Shown: positions 7,038-49,497 of the stretch, one piece after another
Layout: each line of letters opens with the position of its first letter
Position numbering within the stretch: the first letter of the stretch is position 1
NCBI GenBank assembly: GCA_000091205.1
Contig: AP006495.2
Source: Cyanidioschyzon merolae
Taxonomy: Eukaryota
Length of the DNA: 64,000 bases
Strand: one strand, 5' to 3'
The notes under the pieces: model-generated
The model's database searches: none
The model's input: only the letters and a program-made list of their open reading frames with translations
Told to the model about the DNA's origin: nothing
Translations under genes and position numbers: made by a program

Positions 7038-7067
7038 AGCTGCTGCTGCTGCTGCTGCTGCTGCTGC
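7038..7067. repeat. (CTG)9 microsatellite.
   Basis: Direct read: gagctgctgctgctgctgctgctgctgctgctgcc. Confidence 0.8.
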
Positions 7068-15655: not shown

Positions 15656-16663
15656 TGGCACCCTACCGAACTGAAAGACTATACTTTGCTACAACTCGAA
15701 CGCTAGTACATCTTGTACAGCAGAACACCACGCTAATGATCAGGATCGCGTTTTCCTCCATAGGCGGCATTTGCGTCATCTCTCATGCCTGCCAGATATC
15801 GACGTGCATATATCGACGACGCTATAGAAAGAAGGAAAAGAAAAGAACCACGTACTAGCAACTCAATTAGAAATTCTTTCTTTCTGTGCGGTATACATTA
15901 GAAAGGGGAGCAAGCTTTCCGAACACTCGAACGTTTATCTTCTAGGCGGAAGGTTTCTCGAGCCTGACGAGTCTGCCGCGCTCGTGTTTCATGCTCCTCC
16001 TGGTGGCGGGTGCTGTACTGAGCTCCGAGCAGCTGTCCGTAACGCAGGTTATTCTGGGACTTGGAGCCGGTAAGCGGCATCTGGATATCGCCCTAGTCGC
16101 GGTGACCTCTTTGTATATCGCTTCGCGCTGTCGCAGGCCGTACGCTTTTCTACACAGTTTGCTGCCTCCGAGAATGATAGTGCATCCCGAATCCGTATTG
16201 AATGAAGCACGACTCGAGCCTTGACTCTCGGTGGTGTGGCAACGCCTTCTGTCTCTATGCTGCATCCGCACCTGCGGTATGGGTGCCATTGCGGTTGCTC
16301 ACGGCAGGCTCGTCGGTCGATACAACGTTTGAAACGACCACTATATCCGAGAAGAAGTATGACTCATGGAACTTGGTAGCAGGGTGTGTTACAAGCGATG
16401 CTTCATGGCGCTAATGTCAAGCGTACACTCGGCAAAAAACACTGGCCTGTCAACGTTCTATCAATGAAAAATAAAAATCATTCGGTTGTTCGACCTGCGC
16501 AATTCTGCCCGTCTACTCGCGCCCAGCACCAAGCAGCAGCGCACACCACACGCACCTGCTTCGAGCGAGACTTTTACCAGGCCAAAACACTGGTCCGTTC
16601 TCTATGGCGAGTTTATTGGAGCGTGAAGAATTAGAGTGATAGAGACGTGGTACCCGAGCTCAG

Positions 16664-25795: not shown

Positions 25796-26794
25796 TGCGA
25801 CGACTCACGCCGGTGTTCTCTCCAAGGTAAAGGCCCTGGGAGCGCCCTCGTCCCGAAGACCAACTGGACCCGCACCGCTGAACGCACAAGTCGCCGCCTG
25901 AAGAAGGTACCTTGAGGGGCTGCTTTCGAATATCGAGACTGCTTTTGGAATGCGGTGCACAGCAGCTCTATCCAAAGCGGCAACTTTCCACAGTGCCAGC
26001 AGTTCAAGTGTATGTACAGCGCCGTCGACTAAAACAGGCACGGAACGGCGAACGCCCACAGTTCAAATACCGCTTCGGAAATGCAGCTTGGAATCAATTT
26101 TTCGTTGACGAAACGATTACGTTGATCTTGGATCCCAGACTGAACGATGAATTTTGGTATCCTGGTATGCGTTCATCGAGCTATACCCTACCTTCAAGTT
26201 CCATTACTTATACGTTGTTCCGGATGTACCGACTGTTTTGTACGTTCCACTGTGTACCAAGCCCGCCGTGAGCACCCCCAACAGCGATTATACTGCTGGT
26301 GCATATGTATGACGGAGACAGAGCGGCTTTGCCATTCCACTGCGGGCGTCGGATGGAGGAATGCTATGCCTGACACGGAATCAGGGCTAATGGTCATTCT
26401 GGGAACCTGAAATATGCGCAGAGAAACTTACTGCCTGCGGCAGCGCCAAGCGATATGCTAGGAGATAACTGCAACATGGGCGATGCCCAGACGCAGCCTA
26501 CCCGCTCCTAGTCCCAGAATAACCCGCGTTGCGGACGAGTCGCTCAGGTCTCATTACAACATCCGCCACTGGAGGGGACGCGAAGCACGGGCCTGGTAGA
26601 CAAGTTCGGCTCGCGGGACCTTCCGCCTGGGAGATAAGCTTTCGAGAATACGGAAAATTTTTCCCTTTCAAAGGTTACCATGAAGGTGGCACCAGAATGC
26701 TATCGAGTTGCTCGTTAATGGATATTTTCTGTTCTTTTTACACATTTGCAGCTAGTACGTCACGTGTTTCTGTTGTTACCACCACGGATACTTC

Positions 26795-27019
26795 GTGGAA
26801 CCCTTGAAGACTTTTCCCTGGCGTCAGGCGACATCCTTCTTTTTCACAACATGGCATTTCACCCTTCGAGTTCGAACTTTTACCGATTCTATATGGGTAG
26901 ACCTGCATTTCATTCCGCCATATTCGCCGTACTTCAACCGCATCGAAGAATTCTTTTCTATGTTGAAACGTAATGATCGCTCAGATGGAAGAATCGCTGA
27001 AGATTTCAGCGCACGGTGA
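26795..27019 (+). pseudogene. Tc1/mariner-type (DDE_3) transposase C-terminal remnant.
   Basis: IWVDLHFIPPYSPYFNRIEEFFSMLKR matches the hallmark ...D..(L/F)PPYSPDLNPIE..W..LK C-terminal block of Tc1/mariner/IS630 transposases. No upstream catalytic region is left. Confidence 0.45.
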
Positions 27020-27079
27020 CACACCGGACCATATGTCGTCTCTCTTCCGCGGGTCCTTCTCCCTCTGGGAAGGTCCCTA

Positions 27080-27482
27080 CCTCAGGGCATTAGCACGTGC
27101 GTTCATTTAAAGAAATAAAAAATCCAAGCGATGAGCTGCGCTGTACACTGCAGAGGGTCGAGATGCAGAAGGGCCGGCAGAGCGCTCAGTGGATTGAAAA
27201 GTACGCAACGCTGACAGAGCAGAAACTGGCGCAAAGGGCATGAGTTTTAGCAATCCTTGCAATAATGCGTTCTAGTAGAGGCAAGAAGCGCATGGAGTTC
27301 GTGAACCGAACCTTGAACGCCGCCATCAATATCAGACGATTTGCGATGCTGGGGAGAGAAAGCCCAGGAGTTGACGCGAGCCAACGTTGTGGAGCAGCCT
27401 CTCAGGTTCAAAGTATACAAGGAAAATCTATAACCAGTAACATGCGGCCGGTCAAAAAAGGCTAGGAGGCGTCTGTGAGTGG
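27080..27482 (+). mobile_element. Fanzor-like family, copy B: short internally deleted derivative (~0.4 kb).
   Basis: 5' end tagcacgtgcgttca..taaagaaataaaaaatcca is homologous to the D/A/C 5' ends. ORF 27265..27465 encodes GKKRMEFVNRTLNAAINIRR (RuvC-III motif). 3' tail gcagcctctcagg...ccggtcaaaaaaggctaggaggcgtctgtgagtgg. Confidence 0.55.
27385..27482 (+). ncRNA. Candidate omega-RNA scaffold: the conserved 3' tail of copy B.
   Basis: Homologous to 58818-58934 (D) and 48958-49043 (C, minus strand). Contains the conserved hairpin agcct-ctc-aggct/aggtt and the terminal GGCGTCTGTGAGTGG block. Sequence diverges immediately downstream. Confidence 0.3.
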
Positions 27483-27823
27483 TTTCCAGGGTACCCTCTC
27501 GAGCCGATGCCCTCTGCGATATGGCAACGCCGACCTCTGTCCGTGCCATGACCGCACCGGCACTACAGGCGCTATTCCGGACATTCAGGCCATGCACTAC
27601 GCCCGAGGTAGAACGTCTGAAGCGGCCAGTATATCCGGGAAGGGTTAGAAGTTATGGAACTTGGGAGTAGAGCGCGCAATGATGGATGCTTCACTGTGCC
27701 CTGATATCGAGCGCCCAGTCGCAGAACGCTGGTCTAGGTCCAGGTTTCATGGAATTCAAGAATGCAACATTTCACGCCGACTCTGTCGGAAACCGCGCCC
27801 GCGCAATACCTCTTCGATAGCTT

Positions 27824-28561
27824 GTGGAGCTCGCTTCTGTATTGAAGCTGGGACACGCACTCGAAATGGACGTGGCAAATATGAAAGTTGCCGAGCTACG
27901 CTGCGAGCTCGAGAGAAGAGGCCTCGATACCACGGGGAAAAAGCAGGAGTTACAGGAGAGACTTCAGAAAGCGCTTGAGCAGGAGGCGCACGGAGAAACT
28001 TCCGCAGCAGAAGCAGTGCCTTCGAAAGGCGACAAAGAGGCCGAGGCGGAGTCTGCTGAGCATGGCACCAGACCAGAACGTGGAGATCAGCAAAGTGCTT
28101 CGAACCAGGAGCAGGGCGCTCTGGAGGCGGGCGCAGAGGACACAGGAACCGGGAACCTCGACACTACGAGTGCGCCAAGAGCATCAGCGCCCGCACCGGA
28201 AAACTCCTCTTCACCTGAGAAGGAAACAAGAAAACTTACGGACGAAGAACTTGAGCAGTTTCTCACGCCCGCCGAGCGAGAGGAAGTTGCGAAAACCATG
28301 GCGCGAGCTGCTCGGTTTGGGGTGCCCTATGGGGGTCTGCCGGCGGAGCTCCGGCGCGCCGCTCTCAACCGGTACCGCAAACGAAGGCGTTTCGAGAAAG
28401 CACTAGAGAAACACGGAGGCCTCGTCCCGGTTGATGAGGCGGAAGAGGAACGGCGGCGGAAACGCATGGAACGTTTCGGCCTGTCCAAGCCAGTACTTGA
28501 ACTCGAAGCGGAGGAACGCGAGCGGAAGCGTTATGAGAACAAGCCGGAAAAGACCAGATAG
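27824..28561 (+). CDS. SAP-domain ribonucleoprotein (SARNP/CIP29/Tho1-like).
   Basis: N-terminal SAP motif MKVAELRCELERRGLDTTGKKQELQERLQKAL. The C-terminal region has the repeated RAARFG / RMERFG motifs typical of Tho1/CIP29. 245 aa; acidic low-complexity middle. Confidence 0.7.
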   Translation: MELASVLKLGHALEMDVANMKVAELRCELERRGLDTTGKKQELQERLQKALEQEAHGETSAAEAVPSKGDKEAEAESAEHGTRPERGDQQSASNQEQGALEAGAEDTGTGNLDTTSAPRASAPAPENSSSPEKETRKLTDEELEQFLTPAEREEVAKTMARAARFGVPYGGLPAELRRAALNRYRKRRRFEKALEKHGGLVPVDEAEEERRRKRMERFGLSKPVLELEAEERERKRYENKPEKTR

Positions 28562-28953: not shown

Positions 28954-29295
28954 CTAGTGGCGATCCTCTCGCACGTAGATTTGACGGCCGTCCAAAGTGG
29001 TTTCGTTCAACTCACGTATCGCCCGTTGCGCTGAGGCCTCGTCCTCATATTCCACCACCCCACAACCCCTCGAGCGCCGCGTCTCTTTGTCTAAGTAAAC
29101 GTCTGCGTAGGTGACTTCGCCGGCGCTGCGCATGTGGTCCTTCAGACCGCGCCACGTCGTCCGCCAGGCGAGGTTACTAACGTAGACCCGGCACGCAGGG
29201 TTCCGCTGGTGGCGTTTATCCGATTTGAGCTCCTGCGCCGCCACCTCCTCCGTCTTCAGATCTCCCTCAAGCTCGCTCTCCTGATACCCGTTCAT
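28954..29295 (-). CDS. Small RRM-domain RNA-binding protein (Aly/REF-like RRM).
   Basis: RNP-2 VYVSNL and RNP-1 RGCGVVEY, ending ...LDGRQIYV. Only the last 113 codons of ORF 28954..30150 look coding (start MNGYQESELEGD at 29295); the upstream 285 codons are Arg/Ser-rich junk. Confidence 0.6.
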   Translation of the reverse strand: MNGYQESELEGDLKTEEVAAQELKSDKRHQRNPACRVYVSNLAWRTTWRGLKDHMRSAGEVTYADVYLDKETRRSRGCGVVEYEDEASAQRAIRELNETTLDGRQIYVREDRH

Positions 29296-30535
29296 AACGG
29301 AACACGAACGTGCGACACAACGCGAACTCTTCCGCACTACACTACCTGCCGAGTGCTGGATGCGATCAGCCCTGCGATCGCTTGCGCGATATTGTACACT
29401 GCGCGGGGACGAATGCGTCAGCGCGCACGCAGATAGACACGTGCCGTTGATGCTGCACGATGCGCCACGTGGCGCGCTGTGCGATGCGATGACGCATCGA
29501 GTGCTCACCCATGCAGCGGTTGTAGCGGCGGCGCTGTGCCGTCTGCGCATGCGTCCGCTGATTCGGTGCTGGCCGGTGCTGTGCGCGCGTATCGCACTGG
29601 GAACGGCGCGCCGCTGGGGCTGCGGAGCGATACGCTCCTCGGTGCAGCGGGGAGAGATGGTCGCTCGCGTGGCGTCCATGTCGCTGTGTATGTGTCTGGA
29701 TGTTATCTGATTAGGGTGCAGCCTGTACAAACGTTTGATCCGTGTCCGTATGCCTTGCAGACGATCGTCTCGACCGTAGATAATGCAGCGTGAGCGAATA
29801 GTCGGCGGGAGACAAAGGCCTGTGCGACACTGGCGTTTCGCTTGTGAACAGAAATAGACGAAGCGCGATGCATGGCGGTACCGAACTGGTGTCGAATGGA
29901 CGCTCGGTTTCGCACAGAGCGATCCAGCATGGAACCATGTATGCTCGGTGTTTGGGTGTATGGAGAGTATGCGTGCTTCCGGAGCAACGATACGGAACCT
30001 TGGGATGCATGCTCGTCGCTGAACGATAGCACTCTTGGAGGTGCCGATCTTTTCTGGATACCTGACTTTTGATGTTGTCCGGATGCTCTCCAGAGACGTG
30101 TGCGTTGAACCTGTCCGATGTACTTGCCAGACCGGCTCGGCACGGGCCATGCACTCGCACTGACAGCAGAGTGTAGGGCAAAACGACTATAGAATCGGAC
30201 TCGAAGTGTTCCGTCTCCAAGGTTTCCGCCCCCCGATGTTTGGAGCGGTACTTCTAGGCGAAGCTCATCATGCATCACTTGCGGTAGCCCAAAAGGGCAA
30301 CGCGAAGCTGTCTCGCATGCTTGTGAGGCAGCAGCAAAGCCTCCAATGCCAAAGAAAAAGCATCCCCAGGAGAATCTGGTACCCAGGTGGGCGCTGAATC
30401 GATTCGGTCCAAGTCGTCTTAAGTGAGGCTCGCTTCGAATGGCGCATCTTGGAAGCGACCGGTACAACACGCCAATGGCTTGCGTGGTAAACCAAGAATC
30501 ACATTGGCAAATCCGATGGGATCTGGTTAGGCGTG

Positions 30536-32420
30536 CAGCGACGAATGCTGGAAGGGACATTCGGACGTGATCTTGCTAATATTACTTGTTTCTCTCACAG
30601 ACGTTCAACAAAAGAAACGGATCCTGCAGATTCGACAGACATAGCAGATACACTCTACACAAGCGCTGCTAACATGCGAATCAATGGGGCTTACCTCTAG
30701 CGTGCAGGCATTCTACGTTCAGCACTTTGGTGAACCAGTACTCTCTAGGGCCGTGCGCTAAACGTCGAGCACCCGAACAGAGCCTCTGCAACGCCGTCAA
30801 CGCGACAGTCGTCCGAGCAGTCCATTCCGCTCCATCCATGCGTGCCGCACCAAATACGACCAGACAAGCCACAGAATATGAATGCTCCGCCCAGGTGCGA
30901 CGGACGCTCCTGAGGCGACGCCCCCGGGGAAAGCAAAAAGCACGCCGAACAACACAGACCGGTGACTTCCGACTGAGACGCGAACGCTGCGTGCAGCAAG
31001 CACGGGTTCCCGCCGCACTCGGCACGACTGTATCCGGGCGAGACGCCACACCGCCTCCACAAGGGCATTCAAAGAGCGAGCAACATGCCGCTGGGCGTCT
31101 ACAGAAGACCAGCCAGCATGCCGACTGCATCAGCCACTGCGGCGATTCGGTCGAGCGGTCGCTTGCAACTCGCCAAACGCGCGAAATCCTTCTAGAGCCG
31201 GTCCTTCGTCGGTGCACGCTTCGTCGCTTCTCCTTCACACATGCCGCTGCCCTGCCCCGAGACAACGACGACGCCCATCACTGAAAATCAGCGGAGGAGT
31301 GCGCAGCTTGTCTGGCGTTCCCGCCCCTCATTCCGAGAACGTTGCTAGGCGTTCCAGACGCGGGGCTGCCAGCGGTCCGCGTCCCTCAGAGAGCCTGCGA
31401 TCCAACGTTCGTGGGGCACTGCAGCTGACGCTCGGCACCCCAGGGACAATACGAGTTCATTCTTCCAGGGCGTGGTAGCATCGGGAGTCGGGCGCGACGG
31501 ATGCCACCAGGCCTATCGACGAGCGGAGTGACGGCCCCAGGACCCGTGTGGACGCGCTGAGAGTGCCGTATCGAGCAGCGCGGGATGCGCTTCACGCTTC
31601 GCTCAGGGAGTACGCGAGACTCTGGATGACTCACGCGGACAGTCTATTGATCGAGTCCACGAGACAGCGCAATGGAGTCGCCGGCCGTTGCGGCCGTACG
31701 GGGCCAGTGAGCGTGCCCTCGCCAACATGTTCCATGACCACGAAGGGCAACTGGCCGATATATCGTTTCGCTCGATGGTGGTGATGGCGGTGGGCGTAGC
31801 GGCACCCGCTGGCACTGGGCGTGCCGGGGCACCCAAGCGCTGCACGCCTCTGCTCCCTCGACGAGCGTTTCCAACGAGTGCAGGACTCGATGCCATGCGA
31901 TTCCCGTGATTGGCTTTCCGACGACATCCACGCGTCACGGGCTCGGGTGCTCGCTGATCCCCAGGTAGCGAAGAAGCACATGAAGCAGAGACGGATGCAC
32001 GGCATGGTGTGCGGCAAGCCGATCGGACGTCAGCGGGCGAGACAATCGAAGACGACCGGCTCGCGATGTGGCGTGCTTGCACCACGAACAACGCGTGTGA
32101 GGAGTTTCTGCACGCGGTATCGAACGCGTCGTTCAACACCCGGACCTGCCTGGTGCATCCGGTGCGTCCAGGAGCTCTGTGTTGAGCGGACATTCAAGGG
32201 AACGTTTGTTTCGTAACGCAGCCGAGGTACTGTACGAAAGGCGCTGCAGTGTTTTGATGAACAGAAATCCGTGCCCAGGCGAGAGCGAGAACGGGATATT
32301 CGCCTAGCGTCATTCACTGGCAGGTTATGGTTCAGCGATCCGGATAGACGTCAGAAGTGCATCGATAACGGTTTGCCGGGGCATTTACTGAGCGACCATG
32401 GTGCTCCATGGTTCAACATC
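30536..32420. repeat. Copy 1 of a ~1.9 kb near-identical direct duplication (copy 2 at 39358..41242).
   Basis: Colinear identity read directly from the sequence, with a constant offset of 8822 bp. Translated ORFs in the two copies differ at only a few residues. Boundaries are where the flanks diverge (agcgacgaat... on the left, ...ggtgctccatg.ttcaacat on the right). No convincing coding content. Confidence 0.85.
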
Positions 32421-32587
32421 ATGGACGATAAGCGCTCCGCGATCCACCGCTGTCAAATCACGGAACGCACGACGCCAGTCGGCGGATTCGCGCTCTTGGA
32501 CGCGCACCTACCCATCAGGCTGGCTCTTGGGACCCGCGTCGCACCTCAAGTGCAGCTGGCCGCCAAAATACAGTTCGGGTATGCGTC

Positions 32588-33700
32588 ATGTCGTTTTCTT
32601 TCGGTTCAGGGTCTACACCGGCTTTCGGTAGCTATAATAGGGGACTCGCTACGCAGTCCAATGCAGCGCAGCCTAGTTTTGGCGTCGGCGGTGTCGGTTC
32701 TGGTGACCCCACGAGTGTCGGCAGCGTCGGAGGCAACGCACCCAGGCCTGGTGCCGGTAGTGCACTGGCCGCGCAGGGCTTCGCGGGTACACCGAACCCA
32801 CCAATGGATGCTTCTCGGCTACCGGAGGCTCTCGAGCTCTGCTACTATGCACTGGATCCAACAAGTCCGGACTATCCCTTCGCTTTTTATTCCTACAATC
32901 GGCGTGAGGACGCAGATGCGCCGCAGCCAGGCGCGGAGACGGTACAGGCACCACCCTGCCCACCGAGACCTCTCGCTCAGTTGTGGATCGAAGCTGTAGA
33001 GTCTAATCCGGATCCGAAAAAATATGCCGTGGTAAGAATCGCAGGGTTCCCAGGCCTGCAAGAGCGTGCAGCCCTGCAAACCCGTCGCCTGGAAGAGCTC
33101 CGACGTGCCACCGAGGACATCGAACAGCGGATATCTCGACTACGTGTCACGTTTGAGCAGCATATCGTCAACAGGTTGGAACGAATTCGAGCACAGCACT
33201 CTCTGTTGGAGACAAAGTTTCTCACTGTTGTGGCGCTCCTGGAATGCACGCTTGTATCCAGGACGGCTGTTGAGACGGCCACCGGAGCGGTGCCGCCGAG
33301 CGCCGCAGGTCGAAGCGCGCTCGTCCTCAAACGAGACAGTGTAGCGGAGTCGCGTCTCCGCGCACGGCTAGATGCCGTGCGGAAACAGCTTGACGGTGCG
33401 AATGGTACGCGCGCTCGCGCGTTGAGGGCGCTTGAGGCCACCGCCACAGTCCTTGGACTAGATATCAGTAGCAGTCCAGAATCGATTCCAGCGGCGTCAG
33501 CTTCGGGGAAGAGCGGTGGCCAATCCTCCACTATAGGGCGGATCCGCCCCGCGGATACTGTTTCTGAGCGACATCTGCTCGAGATCCTGGAGCGTGAACG
33601 TCAGGGTATGGAGCATGTGTTCGAAGTATTGGAACACGATAGGCGGGAAACGGAGACACTTTGGAGAGCGGCTCGTGAGCTGATCGGCCCCACGCGCTGA
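32588..33700 (+). CDS. FG-repeat plus coiled-coil protein, possibly a nucleoporin (Nup54/57-like).
   Basis: N-terminus MSFSFGSGSTPAFGSY...SFGVGG with FG/GS repeats, then a long predicted helical region (LEELRRATEDIEQRISRLRVTFEQH...). 370 aa. Family assignment is tentative. Confidence 0.45.
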   Translation: MSFSFGSGSTPAFGSYNRGLATQSNAAQPSFGVGGVGSGDPTSVGSVGGNAPRPGAGSALAAQGFAGTPNPPMDASRLPEALELCYYALDPTSPDYPFAFYSYNRREDADAPQPGAETVQAPPCPPRPLAQLWIEAVESNPDPKKYAVVRIAGFPGLQERAALQTRRLEELRRATEDIEQRISRLRVTFEQHIVNRLERIRAQHSLLETKFLTVVALLECTLVSRTAVETATGAVPPSAAGRSALVLKRDSVAESRLRARLDAVRKQLDGANGTRARALRALEATATVLGLDISSSPESIPAASASGKSGGQSSTIGRIRPADTVSERHLLEILERERQGMEHVFEVLEHDRRETETLWRAARELIGPTR

Positions 33701-35639
33701 CACGCACATGGAGCGGCGTTCTCCGCATCATCTGTTTTAAGTGTCTGCTGAAACTTGCCGAAATTTGGAGAATATCATACGCAGAGCGCGACTTCTCTTT
33801 TGTGAATCTTCAGCGGCGAGTCCACAGCGCCTTGGAGGTGCACGATATTTGCGGATGATAACCCGGTCTCAATGTTTACCGATCGCCATGTCGTTGCTGC
33901 GAGTGATGCACCCACGAAATGAAAAACTGTCTATGAAGATTAGAGGACCCTGTAGAGGATATCCGTAGGCAAATGTAGGCATCGAGTTCGGTTTGCATGA
34001 GGGCCCTGGAGCGCGCCGCACCTATTGCTTCCTATTCTCGGACTTGATGTCGACGTGCATGAACTGCAAGTGGTGTTCGCAGGAGGCGTCCATTTGCTCC
34101 ATCGGCATCCCAGATACATGCCGCCGTTCCGAGTTCGATACTACGGAGAAGTGATGGGCGTCGACCTCTGCGTTAATCTATTTCGCTTGTTGCAAGTCGT
34201 CTCGCGCGATGTGATAACGAAACTGATGGATTCAGGGCGGTAGGATTATCACCTATCTGTCGTAGACTTGGCGACGAACTGGCATGCAAAGCGACTACTG
34301 CGTGTAACTCGGACACTTCGAACGCGTAAGCGAGGTTTCGGAATCTCTGGGCGGCACTGGCGATCAACCGTACTCCGCCTGACTCGTGTTCTGTACCTCT
34401 CCGGAACAGCATTTCCAGCTTTGTTTCAGTGGCGGCGTTTTCCGGCGATCCGGATCGCGCAATGAGCCGTATGCCGCAGAAAGCCATCCGAGCATGATAC
34501 GATTTTGAACAATAGAGGATCGATGCATTTGTCCGCATCCCACCGAAAGCGCGGAGAATGTCGGTGATCAGGCAAGGATAAACGTGCCTGACACAGGGAG
34601 AAACGCTCTCGGCGAACACTTGTTGGAGTGTTCTCTCTATCTGCCGGACTTGATGCAAGAAAGGAAGTACACGTCCCGCGAGACGATCCATGCGCGCCGC
34701 AGACCGAGGCACAGCGGTCTCGTGAGCGTCTGGCTCAAAGCGCATTCGCCACCCTACCCCAGTCACATTGTAAAGCGTGCAACTGGCGACGTATTGAATT
34801 GGGCAGCATACGGAATGATCGACGCTTTCTCTCTCTATCTCCCTCAAGCATCCATAGAGTCCAGAGAGGTATCCTGCTGAGCGATGACAACGATCATCGC
34901 GCCGTAGTTGTTGCAGTTGCGACGAATACGCCCGCGAGATGCTAAGCCTCATCACTGGTTTCGGGCACGACGCAAACGCTGCGGTGAGCTTGCGGCGCGT
35001 GCACCTCGGCTCTCTCCGAGCGCCGCTGTAACCTATACGTTGTGCCGTCCAAACAAATACGTACGGAGCCCAGCTGCCGATGCCTGTCCACATAGTTGCC
35101 GCTCACCTGAATGCCATCGAAATAGCTCGGAGCACCCGAGCTCAAGTCGAGAGTCGCGCTTGTGTTATGACGCTCGAACCTAGGTACCGCGGGCGCCTGT
35201 AAACCTTGCTTACCCGGGAAACCTCTCATAGACGCTATCGCACAAAAGTGCTTTCAGTCTTCGAACATCTGAGTATTGGCGGAAACCAACGCGCTGTCTC
35301 CTTGGTCCGTCATGTCTCCGTTTCCACGACAGCCTTGATGAGACGAACCCACGATCCATGCGCCATGCGCCGTGAGGAAGTACGCTGAAGCGCGGGCAGG
35401 CTCTTTGAAAGTCACCTGTGCACGCACATACGCACAAAGGCACACAGGCACAGTAGCGTGGATACTGATGCCGCGCGCTTCCGCCGCTATCGATAAGGAG
35501 CGTAGCAGGCGAGTCCTTCCCCCAGTGTCGATGCATGTACGGTGTGGGCTGGTGGTGCTTTCGATGCACAGGGAGCGGCGTGCGCGGAGCCGCTCCAGAA
35601 GCACGTGAGGTAGGCTCGGCACTAGGAATGCCGCTGGAG

Positions 35640-36110
35640 TGTACCGCTATCACGATGGTAATACTTGCCTGGGGCTGGTCGATTCTTGTTGTAGGTCTGG
35701 AGCGAGGCGTGATCGTCATGTCGCTGGACCAAAATGCGATTCCAATGGTAAGACTTGCCTGGGGCTAAACGATTCTCGTTATGTGTCTAGACCGAGGCGT
35801 GATCGTCATGTCGCTGGACCAAAATGCGATTCCAATGGTAAGACTTGCCTGGGGCTAAACGATTCTCGTTATGTGTCTAGACCGAGGCGTGATCGTCATG
35901 TCGCTGGACCAAAATGCGATTCCAATGGTAAGACTTCCCTGGGGCTGGTCGATTCTCGTTATGTGTCTAGACCGAGGCGTGATCGTCATGTCGCTGGACC
36001 AAAATGCGATTCCAATGGTAAGACTTGCCTGGGGCTAAACGATTCTCGTTATGTATACGGAGCGAGGCGTGATCGTCATGTCGCTGGCTTTCGTACCGAT
36101 CACGCATCCA
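35640..36110. repeat. 90-bp minisatellite, about 5.2 units.
   Basis: Unit tgtcgctggaccaaaatgcgattccaatggtaagacttgcctggggctaaacgattctcgttatgtgtctagaccgaggcgtgatcgtca. Full units start at 35719, 35809, 35899 and 35989, with partial units at both ends. It produces artefactual repeat ORFs on both strands. Confidence 0.85.
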
Positions 36111-36973
36111 CCTGGCTTCGTAGCGATATATGCAGCCTTCATTGAGCACAAGTACGGCGGGTGTCGAGCTTGCCCCTAGCCGCCACTACATCTCGCCGAG
36201 TGCGGTGGCGCTTTGGACTTCGAACTTGGTCAGCGTCGTTTCGAGGCGATCGCCGGCTGAGCGGCGATTCGTCGTCAAGGTGAGCGCGTCGCTTCTCAGG
36301 TGCGTGCCTGAGGCAGCAACCGACCGAAACGGGAAATCGCTTCTTGGGAGCCAGCATCTGGGATCGACCACGAGAGTTACGAGCAAAAGCTACGGCACTA
36401 CTACGGGACGTGAAACCTCTCCGTTCAATCGAGTCGGCGTTACCCCATTCGAAGGTTTCGGTGAGTGCCTGTCACTGATACTTTCGAGTTCCCAGAGGTT
36501 ACCTGTTCGCGGACGACCGAGAAGCGTGTGGAGGCTCTGACACCGACCTCAGGTGTATGCTCTGACATTGTTCCCAAAACTTGGTAACTGATCGCGCAAC
36601 CTCTAGTAGGCTTTTGGTTCGCCCATGCACTGCGCACGAGTTGGCTGTAGCTTCTAAGATGCTGGTTATGTTAGGCTCTAGTTTCCTGCACCCTGGGCAA
36701 GAGCCTTTTCATGGTAGCATTGCTGATTCATCACACTGGATCTCAAGTGGCAGTGGGTATAGGTGGGAGCTAGGTCCCGCGCTTTCCCTCAACGTTATGA
36801 TTGCGAGTCCAACGCACACGCACTCCGATTCCGGCGTCCGACAGACGACTTCAGCGGTCCCCGAACGAGCGCGACTAGTGACGCTCAGTAAAGGGAGCTC
36901 TAGCACAGGCTGGTGTGTTTCTCGTCGCAACATTACTTGCGAGCACGTCGCGTTCGTCGCCGTATCCAAACCC

Positions 36974-38017
36974 ATGAACGAGCACGATGAAACACAGCGC
37001 ACGGAAGTAGATATTCATACCACGCAGGCTGCAGTGCTTTCAAGCCTCAATCATCGCAAGCAGCTGGCTTCGCTCATGGCAGGTGGCTTCGCTGGCACCT
37101 TTGCTTCCACGATTACGTGCCCACTCGAAGTCATCAAAACAAAGCTTCAATCGATTTCGTCCGTAGGGAGCGGAGGAAAGCACGCCACCTTTCTCTCCGT
37201 GGCGAGAAATATTGCGCGCCAGGAGGGCGTTCGTGGATTTTTCCGGGGCCTGTTGCCGACATGGGTCGGTATCCTGCCGGCGCGTGCCACCTACTTCTGG
37301 GCATACTCTACCACGAAATCAGTATTGGCGCACGTTTTCGGGGAGTCAGATGCACGAACCCATGTGGCATCTGCGGCGATGGCGGGCGTGGTATCGAATG
37401 CCCTCACGAACCCCATATGGATGGTCAAGACGCGTATGCAGCTCGATACCGGTGGATCCAATGGGTTTCATTACCGGGGCTATGGTGACGCGTGCCGGCG
37501 CATTCTGGCCGAGGAAGGTATCGCAGGCTTCTACAAGGGACTCACTGCGAGTTTCTGGGGCGTTTCTGAGGGCGCCATCCATTTTTTGGTTTATGAGCGT
37601 TTGAAGAAATTTCTCCAGCAACGTCAACGGGCGAAGCTCGATGAGGGCGTCGATCAACATGAAGCCGACAAGCTTCCTGCCGTGCAGTACCTTCTGGCCG
37701 CGGGCTTCAGTAAGCTCGTAGCGAGCACCCTCACCTACCCACACGAAGTCGTGCGAACGCGTCTCAGAGAGCAACGGCCCGTCTATCCGGGGGGCCCCCT
37801 CAAATATCGATCCGTGCCGCACGCCTTATGGGTCATAGGTCGCGAGGAAGGACGACGCGGCCTGTACTGCGGTATGGGCACACACTTACTGCGCGTGGTC
37901 CCGAATACCGCGCTCATGTTCCTCGCATATGAACTAGTGTCCCGTTGGATAGAGAAGTATTATGCACAGCGTGATGAAGAGCGCACACAAAAGGCTGCCC
38001 GGATCTCGACTTCGTGA
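36974..38017 (+). CDS. Mitochondrial carrier family protein, possibly a pyrimidine-nucleotide carrier (Rim2/SLC25A33/36-like).
   Basis: Three carrier repeats with signature motifs: ITCPLEVIKTKLQ, NPIWMVKTRMQL and TYPHEVVRTRLREQ. FAGTFASTITCPLEVIKT is close to SLC25A33/36. ORF 36581..38017; start placed at the ATG at 36974 (MNEHDE), giving ~347 aa. Confidence 0.7.
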   Translation: MNEHDETQRTEVDIHTTQAAVLSSLNHRKQLASLMAGGFAGTFASTITCPLEVIKTKLQSISSVGSGGKHATFLSVARNIARQEGVRGFFRGLLPTWVGILPARATYFWAYSTTKSVLAHVFGESDARTHVASAAMAGVVSNALTNPIWMVKTRMQLDTGGSNGFHYRGYGDACRRILAEEGIAGFYKGLTASFWGVSEGAIHFLVYERLKKFLQQRQRAKLDEGVDQHEADKLPAVQYLLAAGFSKLVASTLTYPHEVVRTRLREQRPVYPGGPLKYRSVPHALWVIGREEGRRGLYCGMGTHLLRVVPNTALMFLAYELVSRWIEKYYAQRDEERTQKAARISTS

Positions 38018-38756
38018 AGAGCCTCCTGCTTGACCAGTAAATGCAGTTGTTTCGGAGCATGTTTGGTGCATTCTGTGGCTCGATCGAACGCCAGCACCGC
38101 TGTCCATCATATTGAATGCCGCACCGGATGGAAGCGTGCGTTGATGATCGCGCATATCAGGGACTTTTGGCGGTGTTTTGGAAGATACCACAGCGTACTG
38201 GAAGGCGTGGTCATGGATGCCCGAAGCGGCTGCATCCGGACCCGGATCAGCAAACAACGCTAGGCGACGTTGGGGCGCCCAGGCACTCAAGTCGCATACG
38301 ACCCGTTTCTGGATATCTGGGTACGCATTCACGGCAAAATGTCGAACATCTATCATTTACTTGTTCGTCATGTTGCCGCGTCGGCCGGATCTTCGACCAT
38401 GGGATCACGCTCTCGAGGCTGAGCAGCACAGACGGAGCAGCATACCGGGTCTTTCGTCGCGGTCCATGGATACTGCCCTTCAGTTATCGTAGCATGTGCG
38501 GGCGGTGCGCGTATCTCGGTACGAAGGATCGTTGAACGTTCCGAGTCCAGGGCTCACGACCCGTCACGCTGACAATGCTCGCTGTACAGCACGATGCACT
38601 CGTTTAGGGCAGAACCTCTCTTCGCTATGCAACGTGAACGCGCTGGTACGGCTGCGGCTACTGAGCACCTTCTCTTCCATGCCTCTATGCTGCCGCTGCT
38701 ATCCAGGTTCACCCCTATGGTTGTGTGTTTTGGCGCTCCGTCGAGGCGCGTCCGGC

Positions 38757-39263
38757 TCAGTACCCAGAAGGGTCCACAATACCGGTTTTGAACGCCCACG
38801 CTATGAAAAGAATCGGCAAAAGTATACTCAGAATTGCGACAACGAGCCAGATGTCGGGACCTTTGTTCCCGGCGATGTAGCGAAACTTTCGACTACCTTC
38901 GATGGACTCTAACCGTTTCGGAGTCGCGCCAGAGGAGCCGTACGTTTTGGACGCGGGCCGCGAGCCCTCTCCAAGCTGGTTTTTCGCTCGCGTTGGACCC
39001 TTCTTCGATTCTGTTTCCTGACGGTTCAGGTTGCACGCAACTGCGCGACGCGCTGCAGCGCGTGCTAAGCGGCTACGACAACATTCGCGGAAACGCGTGC
39101 GCTTGAGCGGGAACTCGGCTTGCCGCCCTAGAACGCTCCCGGTCGCGAGACTAACAAAGGCACTGACATCGTCGTGGAGGCGTCTGTTTGGCATTGCAAC
39201 CTCCTGGCGCAATAAGGTGCTGTAAGGAGTACTTGACGCACCCAAGGTGAAACACAGAACCAA
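38757..39263 (-). CDS. Possible tail-anchored membrane protein.
   Basis: The ORF ends with a single hydrophobic helix, IWLVVAILSILLPILFIAWAF, followed by a short tail. The upstream part is basic and low-complexity. Weak call. Confidence 0.3.
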   Translation of the reverse strand: MVLCFTLGASSTPYSTLLRQEVAMPNRRLHDDVSAFVSLATGSVLGRQAEFPLKRTRFRECCRSRLARAAARRAVACNLNRQETESKKGPTRAKNQLGEGSRPASKTYGSSGATPKRLESIEGSRKFRYIAGNKGPDIWLVVAILSILLPILFIAWAFKTGIVDPSGY

Positions 39264-39357
39264 TTCGGAGGGTTAGCATTGCGGCACTAGGCGAGAACGG
39301 CGCTTGTATGCGCTGCGCTTCGCGGCCGCAGGTTCGTGTTTCCTGGTGTTTATACGT

Positions 39358-41242
39358 AGAGCGACGAATTCTGGAAGGGACATTCGGACGTGATCTTGCT
39401 AATATTACTTGTTTCTCTCACAGACGTTCAACAAAAGAAACGGATCCTGCAGATTCGACAGACATAGCAGATACACTCTACACAAGCGCTGCTAACATGC
39501 GAATCAATGGGGCTTACCTCTAGCGTGCAGGCATTCTACGTTCAGCACTTTGGTGAACCAGTACTCTCTAGGGCCGTGCGCTAAACGTCGAGCACCCGAA
39601 CAGAGCCTCTGCAACGCCGTCAACGCGACAGTCGTCCGAGCAGTCCATTCCGCTCCATCCATGCGTGCCGCATCAAATACGACCAGACAAGCCACAGAAT
39701 ATGAATGCTCCGCCCAGGTGCGACGGACGCTCCTGAGGCGACGCCCCCGGGGAAAGCAAAAAGCACGCCGAACAACACAGACCGGTGACTTCCGACTGAG
39801 ACGCGAACGCTGCGTGCAGCAAGCACGGGTTCCCGCCGCACTCGGCACGCCTGTATCCGGGCGAGACGCCACACCGCCTCGACAAGGGCATTCAAAGAGC
39901 GAGCGACATGCCGCTGGGCGTCTACAGAAGACCAGCCAGCATGCCGACTGCATCAGCCACTGCGGCGATTCAGTCGAGCGGTCGCTTGCAACTCGCCAAA
40001 CGCGCGAAATCCTTCTAGAGCCGGTCCTTCGTCGGTGCACGCTTCGTCGCTTCTCCTTCACACATGCCGCTGCCCTGCCCCGAGACAACGACGACGCCCA
40101 TCACTGAAAATCAGCCGAGGAGTGCGCAGCTTGTCTGGCGTCCCCGCCCCTCATTCCGAGAACGTTGCTAGGCGTTCCAGACGCGGGGCTGCCAGCGGTC
40201 CGCGTCCCTCAGAGAGCCTGCGATCCAACCTTCGTGAGGCACTGCAGCTGACGCTCGGCACCCCAGGGACAATACGAGTTCATTCTTCCAGGGCGTGGTA
40301 GTATCGGGAGTCGGGCGCGACGGATGCCACCAGGCCTATCGACGAGCGGAGTGACGGCCCCAGGACCCGTGTGGACGCGCTGAGAGTGCCGTATCGAGCA
40401 GCGCGGGATGCGCTTCACGCTTCGCTCAGGGAGTACGCGAGACTCTGGATGACTCACGCGGACAGTCTTTTGATCGAGTCCACGAGACAGCGCAATGGAG
40501 TCGCCGGCCGTTGCGGCCGTACGGGGCCAGTGAGCGTGCCCTCGCCAACATGTTCCATGACCACGAAGGGCAACTGGCCGATATATCGTTTCGCTCGATG
40601 GTGGTGATGGCGGTGGGCGTAGCGGCACCCGCTGGCACCGGGCGTGCCGGGGCACCCAAGCGCTGCACGCCTCTGCTCCCTCGACGAGCGTTTCCAACGA
40701 GTGCAGGACTCGATGCCATGCGATTCCCGTGGTTGGCTTTCCGACGACATCCACGCGTCACGGGCTCGGGTGCTCGCTGATCCCCAGGTAGCGAAGAAGC
40801 ACATGAAGCAGAGACGGATGCACGGCATGGTGTGCGGCAAGCCGATCGGACGTCAGCGGGCGAGACAATCGAAGACGACCGGCTCGCGATGTGGCGTGCT
40901 TGCACCACGAACAACGCGTGTGAGGAGTTTCTGCACGCGGTATCGAACGCGTCGTTCAACACCCGGACCTGCCTGGTGCTTCCGGTGCGTCCAGCAGCTC
41001 TGTGTTGAGCGGACATTCGAGGGAACGTTTGTTTCGTAACGCAGCCGAGGTACTGTACGAAAGGCGCTGCAGTGTTTTGATGAACAGAAATCCGTGCCCA
41101 GGCGAGAGCGAGAACGGGATATTCGCCTAGCGTCATCCACTGGCAGGTTATGGTTCAGCGATCCGGATAGACGTCAGAAGTGCATCGATAACGGTTTGCC
41201 GGGGCATTTACTGAGCGACCATGGTGCTCCATGATTCAACAT
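39358..41242. repeat. Copy 2 of the ~1.9 kb direct duplication.
   Basis: See copy 1; same orientation. Confidence 0.85.
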
Positions 41243-41847: not shown

Positions 41848-42275
41848 CACCAGCAGCACCATCTCACAACGCATGGACGATGGAAGTATATCTGTCCCAT
41901 GATCACTGCAGCGCAGCAGTGCGCTGTACAAACAGCACCATCTCACAACGCATGGACGATGGAAATATATCTTGACCCATGATCACTGCAGCGTAGCAGT
42001 GCGCTGTACAAACAGCATCGCCAGTGCGATTGGACGATGGAAATATATCTTGACCCATGATCACTGCAGCGTAGCAGTGCGCTGTACAAACAGCATCGCC
42101 AGTGCGATTGGACGATGGAAATATATCTTGACCCATGATCACTGCAGCGTAGCAGTGCGCTGTACAAACAGCACCATCTCACAACGCATGGACGATGGAA
42201 ATATATCTGACCCATGATCACTGCAGCGTAGCAGTGCGCTGTACAAACAGCATCGCCAGTGCGATTTTTTACATC
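41848..42275. repeat. 78-bp minisatellite, about 5.5 units, with two alternating variants of a ~16-bp sub-block.
   Basis: Unit gacgatggaaatatatcttgacccatgatcactgcagcgtagcagtgcgctgtacaaacagca followed by either ccatctcacaacgcatg or tcgccagtgcgattg. Read directly from the sequence. Confidence 0.85.
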
Positions 42276-42665: not shown

Positions 42666-45092
42666 TCATGGTATCTGAAGGTTGGGCTCCGACGAGCAAC
42701 GACGTATACCAGAGTGCTTCGGGTGACTACTGCCGCTCGCAGGAGCACTGGTTTTCGCTACAGGTGCTTCCGGCGACATGGAACGGCGCGCAGCAATCAT
42801 ATCCATGAGACTCTGGACGGAACCTGACTCGGCAACGGAGTTGGTGCCTGGCGCACTCTGCTTCAGCCTTTCGATTTCGATCGTAAGGCGTTTGGAGAGG
42901 TACTTGCAGAAAAACGGCGATTCCAGTGCGCAGATGGGCACTAAATCCGCTTCGGCGTCATCGAAACAGTGGAACATACCCTGCGTCTTGTTCGATGGCG
43001 TTTCCGCGTCGGCAGAGGTATTGCGTGGTTGTTGGTGCTCTTGGTGCTGTTGCTCGGGCCCAGCGATGGCTGTGGATACTGTTATCGGTCCACTTGATGT
43101 TGATGTCGCTATTGCTGCCTGAAGCTGCTCCTCAAACGCAAAGACTCCATAATCGTCATCCACAAGCGGTACGTAGAGTGACCCAACAGGTTTCGTAGGA
43201 CGCTCGCAAAATAACGACTGTAGCCGCTTGTCTCGTGCAGCACAAACGCGTTCCGCTTCCAGAACGGCAGTTTCCAGTTTGCTTCGACCTTCAAAACGAC
43301 TCTGTTCCGCTCGACCGTAATCCTCAGGAGACGAGTCCTGTGTTCTGTGCGAACGGGCAGCACGAGTTGATTGCCAAGACTCTGCAGAGCGGGTCGAGGA
43401 TGCGTCTCCGTACACAAGCAGACCGATTTGGTAGAGTGTGAGCCCTGCTTGGATTCCAAGCTTCAAAAGCAGGGTGCCAACACAGAGGCTGCGCAAGCTG
43501 CCCTTGCGAAGCGCACGTGGTCCAAGTTCGCGCGTCAGCAACTTCACATCCGCGAATGAGTCCAGTCCCAAGACGTAGCGCCGAACCGAGTCCAACACAG
43601 CCTCCTGGGATTGCGTCCAATCCATCCAGCATGCCCGAGGAACGGTCGGCACCTGCTCTGGCAAAATGTACGCATGATCGATCGCGACAAGTTGCATTTG
43701 GGTTCGCTGCGAGGCCTGTTTGCATTCCTTTTCGCATGATTCCGAGTCCTTCAAAAGGCCTCGGTGCCGAAGCAGCTCTGAAGTGTCACACACGAGCACA
43801 TTCGATGCGTTCCGATCGCACTGCAGCACTCGTATATCAAAAGCGGCGATGCGTTGGACTGATTCAGTATCGAAAACACCAGGGCCAAAGTCTTCGGCGT
43901 CGCCGCGGTTCCTGTAGTACACTTGAAATGCACCGCATTTGGTCTTCCTCGTCATTGTGTCGCCGCAGTTGTCCACAAGCTCACATTTTGCGAGAGCTGT
44001 TTGCGGAATATTCGCAAAGTGCCCGTGATCCAGTAAATACGCTGCACATTCCTTAAATGCACCCTCGGCGGGATGGAAATACATGCGCGCTGGTTGCAAA
44101 GGCAGCTCCGTACCAGCAGTTTCCTCGTCAAACGGTTTGAATATTCCCAACACGCTCTGCGTGCCTGTGGCATTCCGAATGAGATAGGCACCCGATGCAC
44201 CCGATCGGTAGGGTCGCTCGAGACGAGCCCCACCGTTTGTGATCGCTTTTGAGGCACGCTCTGCAGCATCGATGACTTCTTCGAGTTCTACGCGCTCCGC
44301 TACGGCAGCATATAGAGAAAACCCCTGATCGCTACTACGTTCATTGTAATCATTGCGATGGCAGCCATGACGGCGGGTAGATTCCAAAAGAGCTCGGGAA
44401 GACTGCCAAAGCTTGTGCCCCTGCTGCGCACCCATTTCTGTCGGATTCTCTCCGCGTAGAGGTAGCAACGCGATCTCTGCGTCCGCCGCCTCTATAGTAC
44501 CCTGCGATGCCTTTGCGCAGTTGCGCGAAGATGCAACTTTGCCTGGCGCTGAACGCGCGCAGCTGCGACTCGCGTACCCAAAGAGATCGAAGCTCTCACA
44601 AACCGAGCTATACGGGTCTGATCGATCGCCGTTTTCGGGAAACTTACTCACATTTGCTTTCACCTCTGTCGTACTAGAGTGACCAAGGCACGACTCATGT
44701 ATAAGGTTCAGCGCAGAACGAGCCTCAAGACTCCGGAGCCAATTGCTACTTGCAGTCGGGGTTCCGCTTGTCAATGGGCTAAGCTGTATCGACAAATCAT
44801 CGTAGACGGTCTTGTTCAAGGCGTTTGCGACTTGATCATCCATGCTCTTGCTCTCTTCGATGATTGAAACGCCCTTGCTCAAGTCCGCACCTGGTCTCGA
44901 AGTCTGATTTTCATCATCTGATTCACTGTCGGACAAGTCAGCCCAGGAGAAGCAACTTACCATAGTATACGGCAAAGACGATGACCCTTTCCACGCAGCT
45001 GGTACCGCATGGCGCGTCAGCGTTACGCTGTTCGTCGACACGTTCCCATTGTCTTCATTTTCAAAATGCGTACCTGCTTTCATCGATGCCAT
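42666..45092 (-). CDS. Phosphatidylinositol 4-kinase, type II / plant PI4K-gamma-like (PI3_PI4_kinase fold).
   Basis: SGASGAYLIRNATGTQSVLGIFKPFDEE, GAFKECAAYLLDH and CGAFQVYYRNRGDAEDFGPGVFDTESVQRIAAFDIRVLQCDRNASNVLV match the conserved blocks of type II PI4K / PI4K-gamma (GS.GSYF, FKP.DEEP, AAY.LDH, DIR..N.DRH.GN.L). Long low-complexity N-terminal half. Confidence 0.7.
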   Translation of the reverse strand: MASMKAGTHFENEDNGNVSTNSVTLTRHAVPAAWKGSSSLPYTMVSCFSWADLSDSESDDENQTSRPGADLSKGVSIIEESKSMDDQVANALNKTVYDDLSIQLSPLTSGTPTASSNWLRSLEARSALNLIHESCLGHSSTTEVKANVSKFPENGDRSDPYSSVCESFDLFGYASRSCARSAPGKVASSRNCAKASQGTIEAADAEIALLPLRGENPTEMGAQQGHKLWQSSRALLESTRRHGCHRNDYNERSSDQGFSLYAAVAERVELEEVIDAAERASKAITNGGARLERPYRSGASGAYLIRNATGTQSVLGIFKPFDEETAGTELPLQPARMYFHPAEGAFKECAAYLLDHGHFANIPQTALAKCELVDNCGDTMTRKTKCGAFQVYYRNRGDAEDFGPGVFDTESVQRIAAFDIRVLQCDRNASNVLVCDTSELLRHRGLLKDSESCEKECKQASQRTQMQLVAIDHAYILPEQVPTVPRACWMDWTQSQEAVLDSVRRYVLGLDSFADVKLLTRELGPRALRKGSLRSLCVGTLLLKLGIQAGLTLYQIGLLVYGDASSTRSAESWQSTRAARSHRTQDSSPEDYGRAEQSRFEGRSKLETAVLEAERVCAARDKRLQSLFCERPTKPVGSLYVPLVDDDYGVFAFEEQLQAAIATSTSSGPITVSTAIAGPEQQHQEHQQPRNTSADAETPSNKTQGMFHCFDDAEADLVPICALESPFFCKYLSKRLTIEIERLKQSAPGTNSVAESGSVQSLMDMIAARRSMSPEAPVAKTSAPASGSSHPKHSGIRRCSSEPNLQIP

Positions 45093-48216: not shown

Positions 48217-48957
48217 TCACTAGTTTCTGAAAACTGGTACTCCGATAAGGTGAAGTAAGATTGTCGAAGCAGTAACTGTTCATTGCAGGCTTTGCTGCGC
48301 CGCCTCCAGCGCCGATCTGCAACGCTTGTCCAGTGATTTAGAAATGGACGGTCAGCGCGATTTGCTTTGTGTTTCATAGACGCTTACCTTGATCGGGGAT
48401 CCCAGATTGCGGTACGGATGGTACCATTCAGAGATGCGTCCAGCATTTCCATTCCAAGTTCCATAACCCATACTTCTTCTTTGATGTGCTGGTGGTTTTT
48501 TACGTTCTGTCGTGCGCCGAGTGCCTGCCCTGATCGTCCGTGATAGCGCCTGTGCCGCCAGTTTGGATGCATCACAGCGACAGAACCACTTTGCCATACC
48601 GCAGAGGGCGTCGGCTCGGGGCGCGGTTCACTCGCCACAGAATCGAGCCTCAAATTCGATTCGTGCTCAGCCGGTTTGTGGATGCAGACTTGCCTTCGGT
48701 GCACTGCGCGTTGGAGAAATTTGGCTGTTAGGATGTATCCTGGGGGCCGCTTCTCTCTTGCGCGATCGTGTGTGAAATTCGTGTGCGGCTCGCAACACGG
48801 ACTTGTGCTTGGCACCCACCAGTGGGTAGGTGCCCAAAGCGCTGGGCCGACCCGCAATGAACGGTAGTTCAGCGAGAGGCGTTGCGCAAAGGCATGCTCG
48901 CAGCGTCGGCACGCTCAACGCAGCGAAAACGTACCGCTCCAATGAGGTATATGAAGA

Positions 48958-49497
48958 CCCATCAGCAGACGCCTGCCAGCCTTTTCCGACCAGCCGCATG
49001 CTATCGATTTCGGCTTCTCCCTATACATTTCGAGCCTGAGAGGCTACCCCACAGAGGGCGTGCGCGCCAGCTCCCCGGGGCTCCTCTCCGGCGCAGCACA
49101 TCTCCTGATGCTCGTTGCAGCATGAAAGTCTCGGTTCACGAATTCCATTCGTTTATTGCCTCCGTTTGCACTCACCAATGCAAGGAGCACTCGAACTCGT
49201 GCCCTCTGCGCCAATACAACCTCGTCATCGTTCCGTCTCGCAAACACCCTTGCTCGCCTATCTCGCCTTTTCTTCGTCTTCTTCTTCATCGTCGAATGCT
49301 CTACTTTGCTCGATGGTTGGCAAGAGGATAATTTTTTCGTTTGCTTCAAGCATCCGGAAATAACGGCCATCAAGGATCACCCATTTCCACATCCATACCT
49401 TTCCCTTGAATTTTTCGTTTTTTGAAAATGAACGCACTTCGAACGCGTCTGCTATGAGCCTCGACAGAGCATTTGCTGACGCTCGCCCGCTGCGGCT
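48958..49497 (-). mobile_element. Fanzor-like family, copy C: short internally deleted derivative (~0.54 kb).
   Basis: ORF 49044..49373 fuses the N-terminal homology KTKKRRDRRARVFARRNDDEVV (cf. copy A KTKKRRQEVRRQWLQERPQYNETVV) to NKRMEFVNRDFHAATSIRRC (RuvC-III). Plus-strand 49414-49497 is the reverse complement of the family 5' end. The 3' tail (minus strand) tgtggggtagcctctcaggctcg...gaaaaggctggcaggcgtctgctgatggg is ~85% identical to copy D. Confidence 0.55.

Follow-up and report, generated by a model that had tools for sequence, protein, structure and literature searches.

Low-copy repeats, or small segmental duplications, are non-mobile sequences of at least 1 kb and at least 90% identity that are present in low copy number, and they are known both for exchanging sequence by inter-locus gene conversion and for mediating non-allelic homologous recombination. 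Here we describe a pair of direct repeats in a 64-kb stretch of DNA from Cyanidioschyzon merolae, a red alga (the window, to which all coordinates refer), each 1883 bp long and 98.99% identical to the other, which bracket a block of conserved genes that includes a Nup54-type nucleoporin and a mitochondrial carrier. We argue that the pair is probably a genuine low-copy repeat with two non-coding copies, in other terms a small dispersed segmental duplication, of non-transpositional origin, that has been homogenised by gene conversion.

C. merolae serves as a minimal model eukaryote owing to its very low genome redundancy, and a repeat pair of ~99% identity matters practically in this species. 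Its finished genome is reported to be free of long terminal repeat (LTR) retrotransposons and to contain 26 non-LTR and 8 class II elements (PMC1955436), together with 253 copies of an interspersed element of ~3.2 kb that make up ~5% of the genome and carry a truncated open reading frame (ORF) resembling WSV486 of white spot syndrome virus (WSSV), a similarity that is very weak (BLASTX E 1e-5 to 4e-2; PMC1955436). A sequence-only reading of the window had noticed the repeat pair and offered several accounts of it, namely a very recent or homogenised duplication, a dispersed family with many genomic copies and target-site duplications (TSDs), or an artefact of assembly; the analysis below weighs these accounts against outgroup loci, metagenome contigs and searches of the repeat itself.

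Results

Structure of the repeat pair

Comparison of the window with itself by BLASTN aligned positions 30537-32419 (copy A) with 39360-41242 (copy B) over their whole length with 19 mismatches and no gaps, on the same strand at an offset of 8823 bp, a match whose length and identity cannot be produced by chance. The count bears out the earlier description of direct, colinear and near-identical copies with few substitutions; the coordinates first given (30536-32420 and 39358-41242, 8822 bp apart) named the correct pair and were off by 1-2 bases. The edges are sharp, with identity per 100 bp of 97-100% inside the repeat and ~20-26% beyond both ends in an ungapped column comparison. Both copies start with AGCGACGAAT and finish with (G/A)TTCAACAT, so that the termini read AGCGAC...CAACAT; the flanks are ...GGCGTGC / CATGGAC... 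for copy A, ...ACGTAG / GACTGCG... for copy B and GCGTGC / GACTGC for the whole unit. At the left boundary lies a possible degenerate extension or microhomology (Table 1), for which a binomial estimate of ~0.006, computed after the data had been seen, is only suggestive.

The repeat unit has a GC content of 63-64% and a CpG observed/expected ratio above 1 in surroundings of ~55% GC; elsewhere in the window only the 6-phosphogluconate dehydrogenase gene is comparably rich in GC. The right end of copy A lies 168 bp upstream of the Nup54 ATG, and the left end of copy B lies 97 bp from the start of a small conserved ORF on the minus strand. No third copy was found within the 64-kb window by BLASTN (word size 7) or nhmmer.

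Distribution in relatives and in natural populations

Two outgroup loci, one from Cyanidiococcus (L001) and one from a second cyanidiophyte (L002), carry the SAP-domain gene, the RRM-domain gene, Nup54, the carrier, the small ORF and the gene with a PI3/PI4-kinase domain (PI4K) in the same order as the window. Neither locus holds a homologue of the repeat (BLASTN word sizes 7-9, nhmmer) or a comparable repeat pair of its own. The spacer between the RRM gene and Nup54 measures 3.3 kb in the window versus ~1.4 kb in L001 and ~2.0 kb in L002, and that between the small ORF and PI4K measures 3.4 kb versus ~0.6 kb and ~0.9 kb. Because the relatives keep the same gene order without the repeat, the repeat must have been gained in the C. 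merolae lineage. As a separate observation, L002 has an unrelated 175-bp direct repeat of 79% identity (4255-4428 and 7860-8034 of that locus) flanking its own Nup54 gene.

Many samples yielded metagenome contigs of 99.2-99.8% identity to the window, and these place both copies of the repeat in unique sequence. A 74-kb contig from the European Nucleotide Archive (ENA; L004) extends from the SAP gene across copy A and Nup54 into the first 228 bp of copy B, thereby spanning copy A with both unique flanks, and a contig from the Joint Genome Institute (JGI; L010) runs from PI4K through the entire copy B to the carrier gene, again with both unique flanks. A locus from a 151-kb JGI contig (L012) enters copy A from its left flank, and L003, L007-L009 and L013-L016 contain copy B's left junction. 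When the JGI metagenome collection was scanned with one left-end 24-mer (44-67 bp from the end), it occurred in six stretches, all in the context of copy A or copy B; the copy count rests on the window and the metagenomes, not on whole-genome DNA. Two end patterns had zero matches in IMG/VR, and a viral origin of the repeat was rejected on the result of that scan.

Concerted variation between the copies

For contigs with an anchor in unique flanking sequence, the parts that lie within the repeat were aligned, so that variants could be compared between copies and between populations. At eight columns (979, 1001, 1017, 1065, 1088, 1156, 1438 and 1582) the pattern is of the concerted type, in which the two window copies share one base and copies A (L027) and B (L026, L010) of the JGI population share another; the orthology-type pattern appears at just two (491 and 522). 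Differences between the copies are also unevenly spread: in the JGI population (L027 versus L026), copies A and B differ at 21 of the left 560 bp (3.8%) and at 1 of 1116 positions to the right (0.09%), and in the window at 5/560 on the left and 14/1323 on the right. At the left end, an A-type haplotype (columns 15, 18, 42 and 74) that lies within ~120 bp of the unique flank is common to L004, L012 and L027; in the window, these same columns of copy A are of the B-type. Variants less than ~120 bp from the unique flanks are reliably anchored, and phasing over the long identical stretches is unreliable.

Taken together, haplotypes drawn from short-read contigs point to concerted evolution of the two copies through patchy gene conversion between them. 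A mosaic of variants such as patchy conversion between paralogues produces would imply a duplication that is older than one would judge from the ~1% divergence between the copies and that predates the split of the sampled populations. Between the very recent and the homogenised duplication of the sequence-only reading, the evidence thus favours the homogenised one: the pair recurs in several populations of C. merolae, and within a lineage its two copies have variants in common. Copy A has diverged by 1.49% between the window and L004, compared with 0-0.3% in the genes and 0.14-1.0% in the other spacers. In the same comparison, the 1241 bp that separate the RRM gene from copy A (29296-30536) show 2 differences (0.16%), far below other spacers.

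Alternative explanations

The repeat offers little to a coding interpretation, as the sequence-only reading had judged. In Pfam searches of ten ORFs the longer repeat ORFs match no family, and a six-frame search with stops masked (E <= 1) likewise returned no family, its single match (0.31) being meaningless. A 236-aa repeat ORF matches its own 90% cluster only among 5.8 billion proteins, and the 30 members of that cluster all come from assemblies of metagenome or Sequence Read Archive (SRA) data, with 0 from NCBI annotation; a 185-aa repeat ORF matches one representative only, that of its own cluster, among 1.84 billion. Exact-protein look-ups of three repeat ORFs of the window gave no match. 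The 51 polymorphic columns among copies divide 15/17/19 over the three phases, with no 3-base periodicity, the nine variable sites within the 236-aa ORF fall mostly at first and second codon positions, and codon-position GC is inconsistent. Because the polymorphism is without periodicity and the variable ORF sites lie mostly at codon positions 1 and 2, the pattern of variation gives no sign of protein-coding constraint.

A rival account is that of a non-coding function. On this account the 1.9 kb unit would be a long non-coding RNA (lncRNA) gene or a regulatory or replication module, its copies kept similar by selection together with gene conversion. Every C. merolae population sampled keeps the pair at the same positions, its GC content of 63-64% is unlike that of neighbouring spacers, one end of each copy abuts the start of a gene (A that of Nup54, B that of the small ORF), and non-coding "hypothetical transcripts" are annotated in the C. 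merolae genome (PMC1955436). However, no segment of the locus diverges faster between strains than the repeat (1.49% versus 0-1.0%), the repeat has no counterpart in the related species, and its copies lack a consistent placement relative to neighbouring genes. Searches for RNA point the same way: the repeat has no Rfam match at the gathering threshold or at E <= 1 and no tRNA by a tRNA search, and the z-scores of 200-nt folds on both strands run from -2.2 to +1.8, no better than those of dinucleotide shuffles. A telomerase template motif has been reported in a chromosome-13 transcript of C. merolae (PMC1955436), and the template CCCCCCATT is absent from the window. We therefore regard a functional non-coding element as unlikely.

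The segments might instead belong to a dispersed-repeat or mobile family, as solo LTRs, a degenerate LTR pair, a non-autonomous DNA element or members of the 253-copy interspersed element, inserted independently in the two spacers. Both spacers are longer than those of the outgroups by ~1.9 kb or more, as two insertions would give, the 253-copy element is reported to occupy ~5% of the C. merolae genome (PMC1955436), other dispersed repeats of 65-75% identity are present in the window, and the metagenome scan used a single 24-mer. The copies themselves, however, bear no mark of transposition. Read directly, their ends lack TG..CA termini and any poly-A or A-rich tail, an inverted-repeat search of the ends was empty, in keeping with the earlier statement that terminal inverted repeats (TIRs) are absent, and the flanks of copy A, of copy B and of the whole 10.7 kb unit show no TSD of 4-6 bp. 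Ends and flanks fit neither the Helitron pattern (5'-TC...CTRR-3', A/T insertion) nor that of a TIR transposon on either strand, and the six-frame Pfam search (E <= 1) detected no reverse transcriptase, integrase or transposase domain in the repeat. Nor did that search show a reverse transcriptase or endonuclease remnant such as a fragment of a non-LTR retrotransposon, the sole retroelement class reported for C. merolae, would carry. The interior, which had been described as free of retroelement genes, is so by Pfam and synteny: it lacks gag and pol and holds Nup54, the carrier and the small ORF, an ancestral block of conserved host genes that stands in the same order in the outgroups.

Membership in a dispersed family is not supported, because the six metagenome matches to the left-end 24-mer show just two flank contexts and the unit has no significant similarity to the dispersed fragments of the window (BLASTN, nhmmer). 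The repeat ORFs have no homologues beyond their own clusters; for the 236-aa and 185-aa ORFs this holds in databases that include NCBI nr, and WSV486, whose published similarity to the interspersed element is very weak, was not aligned to them directly. The finished C. merolae genome is, moreover, reported to be without LTR retrotransposons (PMC1955436). The many genomic copies with TSDs that the sequence-only reading had raised as an alternative thus find no support in two flank contexts and flanks free of TSDs, and we consider independent insertion of mobile-family members quite improbable.

The dispersed fragments form a non-coding family in the window, 65-75% identical and in both orientations (13842-16431, 26260-27721, 48454-49487, 58412-58935 and 9967-10376), which includes an inverted pair at 9978-10097 and 10376-10257 (84%), and they may correspond to the 253-copy interspersed element (PMC1955436). 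An ORF in this family (13828-14661) has no Pfam or protein-database match. Weak tblastn matches from the 1.9 kb repeat to 14170-14391 (E 0.02-0.05) were unsupported by nhmmer or BLASTN and were treated as compositional.

Direct repeats in this arrangement were said to be prone to unequal recombination, and contigs with the predicted joins do exist. Four contigs from four JGI samples (L018-L021) run from the PI4K side through one repeat copy to the RRM/SAP side, without Nup54, the carrier and the small ORF; L028 joins the carrier and small ORF through one repeat copy to Nup54; and the contig L006 (8671 bp), whose ends overlap exactly over 121 bp, closes a cycle of repeat plus block. All four combinations of flanks around the repeat occur in public metagenome assemblies. 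In the JGI population, however, the right 1.1-1.3 kb is identical between the copies, so that a de Bruijn assembler is unable to phase them, and anchored contigs mix A-type and B-type variants with differing switch points. The deletion-type and the circle- or tandem-type contigs are probably mis-joins through a part-collapsed repeat, which real recombination products would resemble; the predicted joins are thus present, but inseparable from those of a collapsed repeat. The deletion-type contigs were also considered as an ancestral state and rejected, because the outgroups carry the gene block between the RRM gene and PI4K. Were the joins real, natural populations would harbour the nucleoporin and the mitochondrial nucleotide-carrier genes on an excisable circle of 8.8 kb or in a tandem amplification, and the repeat pair would be a recombination cassette kept by gene conversion, which we consider highly improbable.

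That assembly created one of the copies by falsely expanding a single-copy sequence is refuted in practice and carries a negligible probability, because, although short-read assemblies of the locus break or mis-join at the repeat, independent contigs from different samples (L004 and L010) contain each copy between unique flanks of its own, both left junctions recur across many samples, the two copies bear distinct variants and, if the window is the 10D reference, its genome was finished telomere to telomere (PMC1955436).

Neighbouring genes and other features of the window

The enclosed block (32420-39359, 6940 bp) had been credited with four host genes; three conserved ones are found there, namely Nup54, the carrier and the small ORF (Table 1). 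Pfam identifies the gene earlier called an FG/coiled-coil gene as Nup54, whose orthologues in L001 and L002 are 47-49% identical. The carrier protein matches BAM81066.1 of C. merolae 10D at 100% identity and a protein of Cyanidiococcus yangmingshanensis at 84%; the window comes from 10D or from a strain sharing at least 99% identity with it. The small ORF has no Pfam family, and a further enclosed ORF of 306 aa (34173-35093) has neither a Pfam match nor a counterpart in the outgroup loci. Copy number in the 90-bp minisatellite varies among strains, with L004 and L006 lacking 270 bp, or 3 units, and a 168-aa ORF that crosses this minisatellite is probably no gene.

Table 1. Coordinates of the repeat copies and of neighbouring features in the window (tandem arrays called by Tandem Repeats Finder, TRF)
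Feature	Coordinates	Strand	Details
SAP-domain gene	27824-28561	+	Pfam
RRM-domain gene, left neighbour	28954-29295	-	~113 aa; Pfam PF00076; synteny in L001, L002 and L004
Possible degenerate 13-bp extension or microhomology at left boundary	30524-30536 (partner 39347-39359)	+	8/13 matching
Repeat copy A	30537-32419	+	1883 bp, ~63% GC; divergent spacer between RRM gene (-) and Nup54 (+)
Nup54-type FG nucleoporin, enclosed	32588-33700	+	370 aa; Pfam PF13874, E 3.5e-19
90-bp minisatellite, enclosed, spacer between Nup54 and carrier	35655-36087		4.8 units, 93% matches (TRF)
Mitochondrial carrier, SLC25A33/36 type, enclosed	36659-38017	+	452 aa; Pfam PF00153, E 6.7e-71
Conserved small ORF, enclosed	38757-39263	-	168 aa; tblastn 48-52% identity at syntenic position in L001 and L002
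Repeat copy B	39360-41242	+	1883 bp; between start of small conserved ORF (-) and 78-bp array / 3' end of PI4K
78-bp tandem array	41854-42252		5.1 units; 0.6 kb right of copy B (TRF)
PI3/PI4-kinase-domain gene (PI4K), right neighbour	42666-45092	-	808 aa; Pfam PF00454

Outside the block, the frame of the RRM gene is open for 398 codons (28954-30150, minus strand), of which only the C-terminal ~113 aa are conserved or called in relatives. The 78-bp array differs in length and copy number among metagenome contigs; every unit contains CATGGACGAT, a 10-mer that also stands immediately after copy A (32420-32429), which may be coincidence. Elsewhere in the window, a full-length 5S rRNA gene (62308-62428, plus strand; Rfam RF00001, 94.3 bits) is ~0.6 kb distant from the start of the 6-phosphogluconate dehydrogenase gene (59763-61742, minus strand), which is rich in GC. 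A 433-aa ORF (7749-9050, minus strand) has three Trefoil (P-type) domains (PF00088, E 1.2e-26), unexpected in a red alga, and a short motif is repeated at 7039-7068 and 8001-8030 with an inverted copy near 62033-62061.

Discussion

We propose that the pair is most likely a two-copy non-coding low-copy repeat, and that an orphan GC-rich sequence of the C. merolae lineage was copied once, in direct orientation, to give a copy on both sides of Nup54, the carrier and the small ORF. The second copy may have come from DNA repair or replication template switching, in which nearby sequence is copied into a break without transposition, and such a templated insertion would possibly have been helped by the 8/13 similarity at the left edge. 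Alternatively, the 8.8 kb unit could have been duplicated in tandem and the second gene block then lost, which would leave the same structure. Copy B is probably the derived copy, because it sits in a spacer of only 0.6-0.9 kb in the relatives. Since the duplication, patchy inter-copy gene conversion would have continued to exchange sequence, and conversion would account for copies that remain ~99% identical although their duplication appears older than the divergence of the populations.

The same model bears on the fate of the enclosed genes. Homologous recombination proceeds readily in C. merolae, and gene targeting in this alga relies on it (PMC3764038); recombination between the copies could delete the block. 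A real deletion would cost single-copy conserved genes in a genome that is reported to be haploid, genes whose essentiality we presume; deletion is thus probably lethal in a haploid cell and would be removed by selection.

Several observations weigh against this interpretation. The GC content of 63-64% is unusual for non-coding DNA in the window, and the repeat is without an assigned source or function. No feature of the junctions separates templated insertion from tandem duplication plus deletion. The pattern of concerted variation comes from short-read metagenome contigs, in which bubble-popping or path choice within a part-collapsed repeat can make chimeric haplotypes, and diverged extra copies (below ~90% identity or without the 24-mer) could have escaped a scan made at the left end only.

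The pair has practical consequences for work on this alga: within these spacers, a gene-targeting construct can recombine with, and a polymerase chain reaction (PCR) assay can prime from, the unintended copy, and assemblies of short reads are mis-joined there. It is no new kind of element, and it provides a small, clean case of concerted evolution in a haploid, repeat-poor genome.

Among known systems, the 253-copy C. merolae element (Nozaki et al. 2007; PMC1955436) resembles the 1.9 kb repeat in being kilobase-size repeated DNA that is specific to C. merolae and has no intact gene. A member of that family would be expected in hundreds of dispersed copies on all chromosomes, whereas the repeat described here was found in two contexts only, is unlike the dispersed repeats of the window and has two ORFs without viral or other protein matches, WSV486 not having been compared directly. 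An LTR retrotransposon or a pair of solo LTRs would also present ~99% identical long direct repeats around a 6.9 kb interior, 10.7 kb in total. The C. merolae pair differs in lacking TG..CA ends, TSDs, gag/pol, a primer-binding site (PBS) and a polypurine tract (PPT), and its interior is ancestral and present in relatives that have no repeats.

The closest likeness is to low-copy repeats and segmental duplications that undergo inter-locus gene conversion, which share with this pair two direct copies of more than 1 kb and more than 98% identity a few kilobases apart, the absence of mobile-element hallmarks, and variants distributed as a mosaic between paralogues within a lineage (here 8 sites versus 2). 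Low-copy repeats that mediate non-allelic homologous recombination have the same geometry, which predicts deletion, duplication or circle products. The C. merolae unit differs in being only 1.9 kb long, in carrying no gene and in residing in a very compact, repeat-poor genome, and its recombination products are putative. With 1883 bp at 98.99% identity in two copies, it is an ordinary low-copy repeat, largely as it was first read.

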